A stretch of DNA of 64,000 nt from a virus, in IMG/VR virus record IMGVR_UViG_3300026534_000102, positions 32,001-96,000 of that record. The stretch is one strand, 5' to 3'. Numbering within the stretch: position 1 is the first letter of the stretch; each line of letters opens with the position of its first letter. A model generated the notes under the pieces. The model was not told where the DNA came from, made no database searches, and worked only from the letters and a program-made list of their open reading frames with translations. The position numbers and the translations under genes are program-made. This document shows positions 9,220 to 64,000 of the stretch, in pieces.

Positions 9220-10815
9220 TTATTTTATTTTGTAGTACACCACATCTTCATTCAATCTATCTGCTCTATTTTCACCAATAATAACTGCACCATTATTTGT
9301 CGCCAAAAAAACAGTATTCCCACTGGTAGAAGTTCTTTCCGTAATAAAAAAATCATTTATTTGGACTTCTTTAGGAAATATCTTGTCAATGCCTCTATAT
9401 ACATAATCTAAACTATCTTCTGTCCAATCTGAACTATTATCGTAGAGTACGTTTAAATTATTATAATACAGAAGCTGCTCTTTGTCAATACTACTAACAT
9501 GAATATTACTAGAATCATAAGTTCTTACCCGAATCCAATATAAATCAATATAAAAATTAGAGTCTGTTGACTCGCCGGCGAATAATTTTAATCTTCTTTC
9601 TGCTTTATTATTAGTTTCACCTATCCACACATCATTAATATACAACACATCGTTTTTTTCCACCCACATCTCTATTTTATTTTGAGAAATAGTAGTTGTA
9701 AACAAATATTTAGCAGTATCAGAAAAATTATTGTTAGTAGCTTTTCTATAAGCTACTTCATTAAACAAAACTTCTCTAGCAATACTATTCCCTTTATACC
9801 ACTGTATCCCTTCTTCATAAGGAACTATTGTATTTACATAATTAATTCTATCAGTAGTCCCATGATTTTTATATAAATATTGTTCTATAATTAGTGGAAA
9901 ATTCACAGTACCGCTACTCAATAAATAATCACCAGTAGTAGCTTTGTATCTTAAAGCACCATTTACTATTGAAAAAGAAGATGGATCACCAACAACAGTC
10001 CATTTATTAGTGTCTAAAGTTGTAGAATTAAAATCATCGTATAAAACAAAAACCTCATCAGGGTCACTTTCAGAAACCGTTAAATTCTCATCCCCATATA
10101 ACATATAGACATAAGAAGATCCGAAAGGCGGTTTTATCCAAATAACAGAACCTGTTGGTGACCATTTTTCTATGAAATAAGGAACTTTATTTCCCGCGGA
10201 ATCAAAAAATCTAATATCATACCCATACGTATGTGCGTGTGAATAATCAAAAGTAATAGAATTAAATTCAACTTTAATTTGATAATCATCTTTAGATACA
10301 GGACCAGAAAAATTTATTTTTTGAAAGTACTTTCCATTGTAGACCAAATTATGCTGTGTATGTTTTGTGGTGTAATACAATTCTCCCAGAGAGGTCTGAT
10401 AACATTTTTCAAATGCACAAAATAAACCACCACTTATAGAGGTTTTTATATGTGTGCCTGATGAAAATTTAATTTGGTCTACACCAGATACAGTGGTGGC
10501 ACACAAATAATCACCATTACCATGAATGTAATTTATACCATTGTTTGTAATATCTGGAAATTGTTTATAATAACTTAAATCATTAAATATACCACCAGAA
10601 ATAGAAGTTAGTGGGTGTTTTAATATACCTGATACTGTTGTACCGATATATAAAAATTCATTATTTGCCCAAACAGAAGAGGCCTTATCTTCTACTAAAA
10701 TAATCCCTTTAAAATTAGCATTAACATCGTAAACATTAACACCTGACACTACACAATGAAAAATATAGTCATCAGAAACCCATATGTTTCTATATTGTGG
10801 CTCAAGGACGCCCAT
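9220..10815 (-). CDS. Virion-type protein: beta-propeller-like scaffold with an inserted DUF2341/lectin-like region
   Basis: DIRFFDSAGNKVPYFIEKW...IWIK...YMLYG and LYDDF..LDTNKW are DUF2341-like. The N- and C-terminal parts align by eye with ORF 35844..36608. Confidence 0.7.
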   Translation of the reverse strand: MGVLEPQYRNIWVSDDYIFHCVVSGVNVYDVNANFKGIILVEDKASSVWANNEFLYIGTTVSGILKHPLTSISGGIFNDLSYYKQFPDITNNGINYIHGNGDYLCATTVSGVDQIKFSSGTHIKTSISGGLFCAFEKCYQTSLGELYYTTKHTQHNLVYNGKYFQKINFSGPVSKDDYQIKVEFNSITFDYSHAHTYGYDIRFFDSAGNKVPYFIEKWSPTGSVIWIKPPFGSSYVYMLYGDENLTVSESDPDEVFVLYDDFNSTTLDTNKWTVVGDPSSFSIVNGALRYKATTGDYLLSSGTVNFPLIIEQYLYKNHGTTDRINYVNTIVPYEEGIQWYKGNSIAREVLFNEVAYRKATNNNFSDTAKYLFTTTISQNKIEMWVEKNDVLYINDVWIGETNNKAERRLKLFAGESTDSNFYIDLYWIRVRTYDSSNIHVSSIDKEQLLYYNNLNVLYDNSSDWTEDSLDYVYRGIDKIFPKEVQINDFFITERTSTSGNTVFLATNNGAVIIGENRADRLNEDVVYYKIK

Positions 10816-10818
10816 AAT

Positions 10819-11310
10819 CTACTCCATAATTTTGTTTCTAAGAATTTCATACACTTCACATAATACTCCATCACCACCATTAGATTTAAGAACAATGTCG
10901 GATAATGCTTTTATTTCGTATATAGCATCAGCTGGGCAAATTGAAATCTGTGCCATCTTAAATAAAGAGATATCTGAAAAACTACTACCTATATATAAAA
11001 CATTTTCTAATGTTACATTATATCTTCTAAGGGCAGCCAAAAATGCTTCTTTTTTTCCTTGCTCCGACCAAAAAAATGGTATATTTTTTCGGCGGCATAA
11101 GTGATAATTTATTCTATTATCAGACGATACGAAAATAAACTTATATCCACGTTTTTTTATCTCATTAATAGCTTCGAAGTCTTTAAAGTTATATGTCTTA
11201 AAAAGAGTATTTCCTAACTCATCAATAGGTGATGAGTGATTAGTTAAAATACCATCTATTTCACTTACGCAAATCTTAATATTATTCAACATGATTTGAT
11301 TATTTCCCAT
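10819..11310 (-). CDS. KdsC/YrbI-like HAD phosphatase family protein (catalytic motif degenerate)
   Basis: VSEIDGILT, FKTYNFKD, YIGSSFSDI, CPADA, GGDGVLCEV resemble KdsC and the CMP-sialic acid synthetase C-terminal domain. Confidence 0.8.
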   Translation of the reverse strand: MGNNQIMLNNIKICVSEIDGILTNHSSPIDELGNTLFKTYNFKDFEAINEIKKRGYKFIFVSSDNRINYHLCRRKNIPFFWSEQGKKEAFLAALRRYNVTLENVLYIGSSFSDISLFKMAQISICPADAIYEIKALSDIVLKSNGGDGVLCEVYEILRNKIME

Positions 11311-62454: not shown

Positions 62455-62522
62455 ATAAAATAGGCAAGAAACACCTATACAGTTGCGGTTTAAAAGCACA
62501 TATAGATAACCTTGCCTTTTTA
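62455..62522 (-). promoter_or_regulatory. Long imperfect RNA hairpin in the intergenic leader
   Basis: Minus strand AGGCAAG...CTTGCCT outer stem with an inner CTATA/TATAG and TGC/GCA helix. Confidence 0.45.
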
Positions 62523-62592
62523 TAAAAATCTTTATGTGACAATATAATTTTACTACCTCAACTTAAAGGTATCCATGGAACTTTGCTAAAAA

Positions 62593-64000
62593 TTAACTAT
62601 AATCAAAGAATATACGATAATTAATCGTACTATTCGCACCTACTTCACTAGCTCCAAGATGTATACACAACCAAATTGGATCTGCTGTCATCCCATAATA
62701 AGTGCTTCCACCAATACTTTCACTCGTGTCTGCATCAGCCACCACATGCAAATTCTCACGTGTAGCGTATAAATATGAAGGAGGAGTATCACTCGAAATA
62801 TCATTGGGTATTACATTGGATCTCCACTCTTTACCAGAAATTGGTGATGTGCCTGCATTATTTCCAGGACCAACCGTACCAAATCTAAATTTAGTATCAT
62901 TGTTACCTTGAGTATGATGTACAAAACTTCCATGGTTTTGAAGTCCAAACTTTACAGTACTAATTTCTATAGCCCCAGACAAAATTTCAAACATAACATT
63001 TTTAACAGGAGATTCAGTAGACACGGTCACATTTCCATAATTCAAATTGGTTATGTCGTACGATTTTGGTTGCGGTGCCCTGCACAGAATTCTAAATTCA
63101 TCGCCCGCATTAAAATTACTAGTCCCAGTAAATTTTATATATAAGCCACGGGTTCCAAGTTGAGTAAATGAATTTGAAGACGTGGTGTAAGTACTAGTAG
63201 CATTATCTCCTCTATCACTACCCCAAAAATACTTAGCTGTGCCTGCAGGAGCTGAAGTATTACTGCCTTCTGCATATTGGACAGCATTACAAACAATTGT
63301 CCACGCTGGATCACAAGTATTAAATACAGCATCAGTAAATTTAACCATTAATCCTTTGGTGCCGAGCTTATACCAATAGTTGGGATACAACAATTCAACC
63401 GGACCGCCATTATCTACATTACCCGTAGACACCCAAGACAGAGTAGGTACATTCCCTGTGCCCGCACCCATAGTTGTACCATTTGAAGTATCAATGGATA
63501 GAGTATAGGTTATAGCCGTATTATAGTTATAGGCACCACCAGCAGTTATGGAGCCGCTGTAAGAATTAGAACCGCCTTTAGTAGGAGTTTGAACGGGAAT
63601 TTCAGTATCAATTACTATTTTGTAAACTTCATCAAAAAACCCATCATAAGTACCCGAAATCGTAATTCCTCCATTATAACTATTATTTGAAGCCAAGCCA
63701 CCGACCTCTGTCTTAGTACCAAAACCAAGTGTTAAATGGGCAGTATTTGTTCCACTTACCACAGAAGCACTGGACGAAGATCCTAAAGTTCCAGAATATA
63801 ATTTGAATGCATTGTTTTCCCACACACATTTTGCATGTTGATGTTTAGTAGAAGCCTCATTTAAATTATGTATTTTTTCACTTATATCTTTGGCAATAAA
63901 ACGCGGGTCCAAATCAGTGCCACTAACTATTGTTACATATTCTGTGGTAACACCATCTAAAGTAAAGTGTAGTCTATTATTACTATAAGCTATACCAAAA
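62593..64000 (-). CDS. Putative virion structural protein (5' end outside the window)
   Basis: The frame stays open from the TTG at 63912 to the window edge (FGIAYSNNRLHFTLDGVTTEYVTIVSGTDLDPR). Gly/Ser/Thr-rich; shares a module with the N-terminal part of 47340..56336. Confidence 0.7.
   Translation of the reverse strand, partial: FGIAYSNNRLHFTLDGVTTEYVTIVSGTDLDPRFIAKDISEKIHNLNEASTKHQHAKCVWENNAFKLYSGTLGSSSSASVVSGTNTAHLTLGFGTKTEVGGLASNNSYNGGITISGTYDGFFDEVYKIVIDTEIPVQTPTKGGSNSYSGSITAGGAYNYNTAITYTLSIDTSNGTTMGAGTGNVPTLSWVSTGNVDNGGPVELLYPNYWYKLGTKGLMVKFTDAVFNTCDPAWTIVCNAVQYAEGSNTSAPAGTAKYFWGSDRGDNATSTYTTSSNSFTQLGTRGLYIKFTGTSNFNAGDEFRILCRAPQPKSYDITNLNYGNVTVSTESPVKNVMFEILSGAIEISTVKFGLQNHGSFVHHTQGNNDTKFRFGTVGPGNNAGTSPISGKEWRSNVIPNDISSDTPPSYLYATRENLHVVADADTSESIGGSTYYGMTADPIWLCIHLGASEVGANSTINYRIFFDYS

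Follow-up and report, generated by a model that had tools for sequence, protein, structure and literature searches.

This report concerns a five-residue motif, T-[T/S]-x-S-G, in proteins encoded by a 64,000-nucleotide (64-kb) stretch of viral DNA, positions 32,001 to 96,000 of IMG/VR record IMGVR_UViG_3300026534_000102, which we refer to as the window. The full record of 115,311 bp is a fragment of a jumbo phage genome. The minus strand holds all genes of the window, and we name them by their first window coordinate. The motif is enriched in this genome and throughout a lineage of related, uncultured phages from aquatic environments; the enrichment is genuine, Ser-Gly-specific, independent of fold and located at surface turns. 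We conclude that T-[T/S]-x-S-G, a short motif of protein surfaces, is under selection in these jumbo phages. It is carried by tail-fibre, baseplate and adhesin-like virion proteins, at places where a beta-strand (T, T/S and a hydrophobic or beta-branched x) gives way to a tight turn (S-G). Tentatively, and with somewhat less than an even chance of being right, we read it as the acceptor site of a phage-encoded cytoplasmic O-glycosylation system, for which a pair of GT4 glycosyltransferases are the candidate enzymes.

The motif occurs 22 times in the window, in proteins 9220 (5 copies), 35844 (3), 36612 (1), 38806 (5), 42217 (1), 44302 (4) and 47340 (3), and not once in the window's other 41 open reading frames (ORFs). 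An earlier reading of the window made from its letters alone (the sequence-only reading) had counted 22 copies in the same seven proteins, had put the rough expectation at about one copy in ~7,300 amino acids (aa) and had found none in the replication, nucleotide-metabolism and glycan enzymes. An exact recount agrees with this, and the composition-based expectation for the 7,349 aa of the carriers is 0.73 copies. The signal is stronger than that reading had stated. Shuffling whole proteins 2,000 times gave a mean of 0.73 and a maximum of 5 copies; when residues were shuffled only inside 10-aa windows, again 2,000 times, the mean was 1.23 and the maximum 6. Local S/T/G-rich composition as the cause is ruled out by shuffling within windows of 10–30 aa. 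We also carried out an unbiased scan of the late proteins for every gapped pattern of three or four residues, roughly 10^6 patterns. TT.SG ranked first (15 observed vs 0.41 expected, Poisson P=7e-19), which rules out post hoc choice of the motif as the cause. The serine at position 4 is encoded by 11 TCN and 11 AGY codons, in line with the earlier remark that both families are used, and the remaining motif codons are at normal usage. As the two codon families are mixed, selection acts at the level of the peptide; with the other reading frames empty as well, a motif at the DNA level is ruled out.

Genome-wide, 27 copies are found where 2.2 are expected. Upstream of the window there are two more carriers, at genome positions 14434-14745 (1 copy) and 15209-18754 (4 copies). 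The motif shows no bias towards the C-terminus, with 4 in the last 12 aa vs 4.5 expected. The sequence-only reading had described the motif as confined to virion-type proteins. It is indeed confined to a subset of virion proteins, but the term is too broad, as the virion-core genes past window position 62593 and the 1,793-aa protein at 56742 have no copy; 9220, which had been counted as virion-type, is encoded outside the structural block. The 1,793-aa protein (56742-62123; 6 orthologues) and a 635-aa protein of the virion block (locus L001, 15034-16941; 10 orthologues) are motif-free in every genome and have an ordinary S/T/G content. They may be internal components (tape-measure/ejection type, portal) or non-beta proteins.

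Enrichment is seen in each of the 12 related IMG/VR jumbo-phage records that have usable virion genes, and across the lineage the motif occurs at 10–25 times its expectation at exposed hairpin turns of fibre and baseplate proteins. Pooling nine phages gave 109 copies in the fibre block vs 9.7 expected, 35 in the virion core vs 5.7 and 5 in replication and metabolism proteins vs 2.3. The 38806 family (44 homologues) alone holds 127 motifs vs 8.8 expected. Control virion proteomes are not enriched (1 vs 1.14 in the 12,410 aa of T4; 2 vs 0.81 in Syn5).

The positions of the motif differ in how strictly they are kept. Position 4 is Ser in 144 occurrences, a 9-fold enrichment, whereas Thr (13), Asp (12) and Asn (9) are each at expectation; position 5 is strictly Gly. 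In a generic turn one would expect position 4 to accept D, N or T as well. Positions 1 and 2 favour Thr (9-fold and 15-fold), followed by V, I, A, C and S, and the x position is mainly I, V, T, Y or A. The coupling between Thr and Ser-Gly is also seen when S-G dipeptides of the fibre proteins are taken as the starting point: 290 of 1,216 (24%) have Thr at -2 vs 103 expected, and 21% have Thr at -3. No upstream-Thr coupling was seen for NG, DG, TG, GG or AG, nor in the non-virion proteins. Control phages show a weak preference for Thr at -2 (~1.5-fold) that is not Ser-specific. We also considered S-G as a substitute for the labile N-G and D-G in long-lived virions and rejected it, as the frequency of NG and DG in fibre proteins is normal.

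The window falls into three parts. The first encodes replication and nucleotide-metabolism proteins (PolA with inteins, clamp loader, ribonucleotide reductase, dUTPase, RecA, DnaB, primase and DnaJ), the second is a glycan cluster at 10819-23266, and the third, from 35505 to the window end, encodes very large beta-rich proteins with DUF2341, Laminin_G_3 and F5/8 type C domains. Protein 9220 (9220-10815, 531 aa) carries its motifs at 10627-10641, 10594-10608, 10483-10497, 10429-10443 and 9319-9333. It consists of a beta-propeller-like N-terminal region similar to 35844, a DUF2341 domain (E=1.6e-18) and a C-terminal region that is also homologous to 35844; the homology of the two proteins, noted earlier, was confirmed at 31% identity over 131 aa. 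Protein 35844 (35844-36608) is a 254-aa beta-propeller in the fibre block with motifs at 36534-36548, 36336-36350 and 36117-36131, and T.SG near-matches stand at further blade hairpins. The 727-aa fibre-type protein 36612 (36612-38795; motif at 36729-36743) has DUF2341, BNR/Asp-box-like blades and Laminin_G_3 (Pfam). Protein 38806 (38806-42213, 1,135 aa) is adhesin- or tail-fibre-like and is built of three ~350-aa beta-sandwich modules and a C-terminal domain; its motifs are at 42145-42159, 41269-41283, 40726-40740, 38902-38916 and 38812-38826. The C-terminal beta-sandwich domain of 36612 is shared with 38806 and is homologous to the protein at genome position 15209 as well. These C-terminal domains of 36612 and 38806 have no Pfam match and follow the consensus '...DxTTSASGTGYFxLETTYSG...'. 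The consensus bears a possible resemblance to transthyretin- and CarboxypepD_reg-like domains, which have a canonical T-D-x-x-G turn. The 694-aa fibre-type protein 42217 (42217-44301; motif at 42334-42348) has DUF2341 and a weak F5/8 type C match, and the 1,010-aa fibre-type protein 44302 (44302-47334) has motifs at 47008-47022, 46948-46962, 44764-44778 and 44743-44757. Protein 47340 (47340-56336) is a giant fibre/adhesin of 2,998 aa with Laminin_G_3 and F5/8 type C domains (Pfam) and motifs at 55371-55385, 52551-52565 and 48375-48389. The tandem TTYSGIDTTYSG in 44302 and the copies at protein ends that the sequence-only reading had pointed out (MSIPTISGG at the N-terminus of 35844 and ...PTTISGL-stop at the C-terminus of 38806) are present as described.

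To place the motif in a structural context we used AlphaFold2 models of two carriers. The model of 38806 (pLDDT 90.2, pTM 0.82) is a string of beta-sandwich modules whose fold neighbours are the bacterial adhesins UafA and SdrD, pilins and the Syn5 tail fibre. T-T closes a strand at sites 311 and 492, where x-S then forms a two-residue turn and G opens the next strand; the remaining three copies are likewise at strand-turn junctions in this model. The earlier statement that the motifs occupy non-equivalent positions in the repeats is true for the 350-aa modules, but sites 311 and 492 lie on structurally equivalent hairpins of ~80-aa sub-repeats. The equivalent hairpins of other sub-repeats read FSS-SS-QLE, RRN-RR-TVS and FKD-DH-TLT, and hence the 38806 fold needs neither Ser nor Gly at this place. 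The model of 35844 (pLDDT 81.7, pTM 0.79) is a beta-propeller, which Foldseek matches with probability 1.0 to WD40 propellers and to those of the Bacteroides BT4663 type, and its two N-terminal motif copies fall inside a predicted disordered segment. In both models the predicted acceptor Ser sits in strand-short loop-strand elements as an S-G tight turn. Thus, the motif is found at exposed turns in unrelated folds, as the sequence-only reading had proposed, in two high-confidence models, with solvent exposure judged from the secondary structure of the models only.

The sites turn over rapidly on conserved scaffolds. Between 38806 and its paralogue at genome position 15209 (28% identical), 1 of 9 sites is common and the others have a different turn sequence in the partner. 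A family of 34 sequences has 28 distinct sites, 15 of them seen only once and two or three conserved; when all orthologue groups of 13 genomes are taken together, singletons make up 31 of 49 sites. Sites of the present genome (G000) are retained barely above background (12.7% vs 5.3%), and a single protein can have up to 11 copies at shifting positions. An exhaustive profile search over 1.84 billion representatives yielded 30 new full-length orthologues of 38806 with 99 motifs vs 5.9 expected (17-fold) and 42 partial or fused matches of the lineage with 95 vs 5.6 (17-fold). The 66 distant proteins that have a single copy of the 38806 module in other architectures hold 15 motifs vs 10.8 (1.4-fold), of which ~9 are in short matches covering only the C-terminal part of the profile. 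Some of these distant homologues are cellular, such as a protein from an Acidobacteriota metagenome-assembled genome and a TIGR01451-family repeat protein, and in P0044 and P0045 the equivalent hairpins have no S-G. Since the distant module homologues are not enriched, the motif is characteristic of this group of phages, not of the domain. In its enrichment over composition, its strict acceptor residues and its gain and loss on conserved scaffolds, the motif is like a sequon in the sense of a peptide motif selected in its own right.

The glycan cluster of the window encodes five soluble glycosyltransferases (GTs), three GT2 and two GT4, together with a ThyA-like protein (21189). The main candidate for the modifying enzyme is the conserved core GT4 21989 (21989-23266; Pfam Glycos_transf_1), which is found at 59–79% identity in ~50 IMG/VR contigs and in every relative that reaches the region. 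The second conserved GT4, 18949 (18949-21189; Pfam LAGLIDADG_3, Intein_splicing, Glycos_transf_1), has orthologues at 48–70% identity in the relatives and a LAGLIDADG intein inside. The region 10819-18949 is variable between relatives. By Pfam and NCBIfam matches it encodes a HAD hydrolase, a DegT aminotransferase, three hexapeptide acetyltransferases, the three GT2, a UDP-GlcNAc 3-dehydrogenase-type oxidoreductase, a methyltransferase and a sulfotransferase, all of them soluble. The oxidoreductase 15998, the DegT 11300 and the acetyltransferases (11300-17095) predict the synthesis of a 2,3-diacetamido-2,3-dideoxy-hexose nucleotide sugar, and the methyltransferase and sulfotransferase suggest a decorated, possibly sulfated, glycan. 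A crude hydropathy scan found no protein with two or more transmembrane segments in G000 and none with more than two in G011, a complete relative of 268,764 bp. As multi-pass membrane proteins are lacking in both, we expect neither a flippase and polymerase nor an enzyme initiating on a lipid carrier.

These observations suggest a possible mechanism, the likeliest of those considered. In the cytoplasm, folded virion proteins would be O-glycosylated on the strictly conserved Ser of the motif. A soluble GT4 of the conserved pair (21989 or 18949) would start the glycan, and the variable enzymes of 10819-18949 (GT2, amino-sugar, methyl and sulfo), where present, would extend or decorate it. We infer three separate steps here: a modification of the Ser, its nature as a glycan, and the enzyme responsible. 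The full scenario, in which aquatic jumbo phages, probably infecting Bacteroidota, use a hairpin sequon read by two GT4s to build a glycan coat with rapidly changing sites on tail fibres and baseplate, is, in our view, less likely than not.

The closest mechanistic precedent, by analogy, is the Aah/TibC system, in which soluble cytoplasmic enzymes O-glycosylate many Ser/Thr residues of the beta-rich adhesins AIDA-I, TibA and Ag43 (PMC3835316). Glycopeptides of TibA contain repeated phi-x-S-G-G turns (TVFSGG, YVISGG, YVSSGG; PMC3835316), which resemble TSISGG, TTWSGG and TISGG of the phage. Both systems have soluble enzymes without a lipid-carrier or export pathway, and both place the acceptor Ser, a predicted one in the phage, in hairpins of beta-rich adhesins. 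They differ in that Aah and TibC are heptosyltransferases, whereas the GTs of the window scan as GT2 and GT4 and none as an Aah/TibC heptosyltransferase, in a scan limited to the window. The bacterial acceptors are moreover beta-helix passengers with 19-residue repeats, and the putative phage acceptors are beta-sandwiches and propellers. Mycobacteriophages, too, encode GTs, as the present phage does with three GT2 and two GT4, and glycosylate their own virion proteins with them in the host cytoplasm, according to the account of Freeman et al. (2023) given in PMC12619734. As cited there, those glycans are at the C-termini of capsid and tail-tube subunits, in contrast to the motif of the jumbo phages, which is internal, without terminal bias and mostly in fibre and baseplate proteins. 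The chlorovirus protein B736L (3oy2) is a virus-encoded soluble GT4-type enzyme and the closest solved relative of 21989, of which it is the best PDB match, but the similarity is weak (E=1e-7) and the virus is eukaryotic. The WD40 propellers and the propellers of the Bacteroides two-component sensors BT4663/BT4673 share the fold of 35844, whose blade hairpins overlap the motif; the blade signature leaves the specificity for Ser and the copies in beta-sandwich and other proteins unexplained. Finally, the lineage resembles the moraphages, jumbo phages of 200–307 kb assigned to Bacteroidota from aquatic metagenomes, which have DnaJ/DnaK and several core glycosyltransferase orthogroups and for which virion glycosylation has been raised as a possibility, with no sequon or motif reported (PMC12619734). 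Identity of the two groups could not be established; they turned out to have no identifiers in common, and the virion genes of moraphages match T4-type VOGs while ours match no PHROGs.

Among the GT genes, only the GT4 pair (21989 and 18949) always accompanies the motif. Relatives that have the pair, no DegT and at most one GT2 keep the motif. In G013, which lacks DegT and most of the variable part, it is at 6 times expectation in fibre and 11 times in core proteins, and in G011, where the variable part is also largely absent, at 2.3 and 10.9 times. The variable part of the cluster is thus not tied to the motif. Because the motif persists in relatives without DegT, acetyltransferases and most or all GT2, at a similar density, only the GT4 pair remains a candidate, and the proposal of the sequence-only reading that the whole cluster at 13549-23266 recognizes the motif finds no support in that form. 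Two relatives (G003 and G016) have no GT matches only because their contigs stop before the GT region, the contig of G012 stops short of the virion block, and the distant GT4 loci L117, L118 and L120 are too short to be informative.

Several observations weigh against the glycosylation reading. Motif density is uncorrelated with the content of GT2, DegT and acetyltransferase genes. No relative without the pair was found among those reaching the region, and as every relative carries it, co-occurrence cannot discriminate. Density also ranges from 23.7 times expectation in the fibres of G000 to 2.3 times in those of G011, with the GT4s equally conserved throughout. Unrelated phages with GT4 homologues (27–39% identity) are not enriched (TJE1, 0 vs 0.4 expected; S-CBS4, 3 vs 1.7), and the late block of S-EIVl, with a GT4 homologue and 2 copies vs 0.4 expected, was counted as unenriched too. 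By sequence the GT4s are generic, with NCBIfam matches far below the cut-off, and their product could be a small-molecule glycoside, or their substrate a host glycan. At positions 1–3 the order T > V/I/A suggests a preference for strand formation and not a need for a hydroxyl group. In the 35844/9220 family five blade hairpins follow the signature '[AG]T-x-x-G-phi', with T and G invariant, and this overlaps the motif; part of the signal, the copies in 35844 and 9220 (~7 of the 27 in the genome), is therefore structural and inherited. The two best-conserved sites, finally, are both within one conserved C-terminal domain.

Much of this would fit an unmodified structural or assembly idiom, in which T-[T/S]-x-S-G-phi is the favoured way of this lineage to close a beta-hairpin, spread as fibre modules were duplicated and shuffled and as propeller blades, beta-sandwich modules and the common C-terminal domain drifted convergently, with the GT cluster serving another purpose. 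We consider this unlikely, though a serious contender. The position of the motifs at strand-turn-strand junctions in both models, the blade signature, the conserved pair of sites, the beta-branched or hydrophobic residues at positions 1–3, the weak general T-x-x-G preference of control virion proteins and a motif density that varies while the GT4s stay constant and that is not raised in unrelated phages with GT4 homologues are all as such an idiom predicts. It does not account for the 9-fold excess of Ser where D, N and T are exactly at expectation, for a coupling of Thr to S-G that is specific to Ser and to virion proteins, or for equivalent hairpins that do without S or G. Outside the lineage, the module of 38806 is at 1.4-fold instead of 17-fold, virion proteins of T4 and Syn5 are not enriched, most sites are singletons and not inherited, and some copies lie in predicted disorder or at the extreme C-terminus with no strand to follow. 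The blade signature with its conserved turn, moreover, holds for 35844 and the N-terminus of 9220 only.

A second group of explanations keeps the Ser-dependence and changes its purpose: the Ser might be phosphorylated, acylated or sulfated or carry a phospho-linked group, or the motif might be a recognition or docking site for a conserved protein of phage or host, for instance an assembly chaperone or a component of the host surface. The strict Ser-Gly, the lineage specificity, the surface location and the turnover would suit any Ser-dependent short linear motif, the cluster does encode a sulfotransferase, a methyltransferase and three acetyltransferases, and the lineage has many conserved proteins with no assigned function besides virion proteins without PHROGs matches. 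On the other side, we identified neither a kinase nor any other enzyme that modifies proteins in the window, the sulfotransferase and acetyltransferases are among the variable genes, which do not track the motif, and up to 11 copies per protein at shifting positions are not expected of a docking site. We rate this group as improbable. Still less probable by far is that the GTs act on DNA carrying glycosylated hydroxymethyl-pyrimidines, the motif being unrelated. The ThyA-like gene 21189 does lie between the two GT4 genes in G000, G005, G008 and G015, and 21989 has a borderline 'GT4-conflict' match, but the complete G011 and G012–G014 have the GT4 pair and no ThyA-family gene, 21189 resembles ordinary archaeal-type thymidylate synthases with no hydroxymethylase among its best 60 PDB matches, and the motif would be left unexplained. 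An artefact of chance, composition or DNA sequence would have been a natural suspicion for a motif picked after inspection in S/T/G-rich carriers. It can practically be dismissed given the maximum of 6 copies in local-composition shuffles vs 22 observed, the top rank in the unbiased scan, the mixed codon families and the replication in 12 other genomes and ~70 further orthologues together with the absence from control phages.

To our knowledge, glycosylation of phage virions has been shown chemically in very few systems, and in none with a sequon defined by sequence. If the glycosylation reading is correct, the motif would be the first sequence-defined O-glycosylation sequon of a bacteriophage virion, and its rapid gain and loss would resemble the glycan shields of animal viruses. 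A readable sequon would make virion glycoproteins predictable from metagenomes, and the motif compared with its S-to-A mutant would be a ready reporter for phage glycosyltransferases without a known acceptor. Glycan shields on receptor-binding organelles would also bear on host range, environmental persistence and the immune recognition of therapeutic phages. Even without any modification, a fold-independent, lineage-specific pentapeptide at 10–25 times its expectation, with sites that turn over quickly, is an evolutionary signal of an unusual kind and calls for an explanation.

The records of the relatives are up to 269 kb long, and the CheckV completeness of comparable records is 34–100%. 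Megablast of GenBank phages gave no match, nor did a search of viral contigs for close relatives with 38806 alone, and a profile search for remoter relatives of the virion core returned the same lineage only. About 20 proteins of the structural region (whole genome and window 35505-64000) were tested against PHROGs and Pfam, with zero PHROGs matches and no capsid, portal, terminase or sheath domain of Pfam. The virion module is strongly divergent from catalogued phages. In relatives, giant ORFs of 8,639 aa (G005, 4130-30049) and 7,667 aa (G011, 148970-171973) directly adjoin the virion-core block; the former has 2 motif copies and the latter none. In the present genome a 788-aa ORF runs off the contig end (genome 112945-115311), and since it is 31% identical to the giant ORF of G005, it probably represents one end of a similar giant gene, cut short by the contig.

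Besides the LAGLIDADG intein in the conserved GT4 (18949-21189), PolA (3649-8112) has two. An intein in a glycosyltransferase is unusual and fits the view of 18949 as a conserved core gene. Homologues of 21989 in cultured cyanophages and an actinophage are in or beside head-morphogenesis operons. In cyanophage S-CBS4 (L122, 9916-12282) the gene lies between the portal and head-protease genes, and in Mae-JY09 (L123, 9787-10971) it follows the major capsid gene at a short distance, separated from it by one small ORF. The TJE1 homologue (L121, 5388-10731) comes with a small sugar-nucleotide cluster. These three phages may glycosylate their own virions at other sites.

The ~350-aa module of 38806 defines a family of 5,479 proteins at E<=1e-3. 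It has no Pfam match and follows the consensus '...LTKGQ...NCVPF...VVEFDP.QVKVQ.G...GHYYxFE...'. Some members are surface proteins of cells, and others are giants that reach 6,104 aa and 16 matched stretches. In 36612, residues ~120-420 (window 37500-38450) contain at least four tandem repeats of ~58 aa, '...ILYATSxDGxxWSNFQxVINxxSEGTYDT...', and, near residue 402, a fifth copy that consists of the Asp box only. These blade repeats, internal to this single protein, account for the patterns at ranks 2 and 3 of the unbiased scan, GTY.T and DG..W. The blades are BNR/Asp-box-like with a weak Glyco_hydro_130 match, which suggests a sialidase- or glycoside hydrolase-like beta-propeller within a fibre protein.

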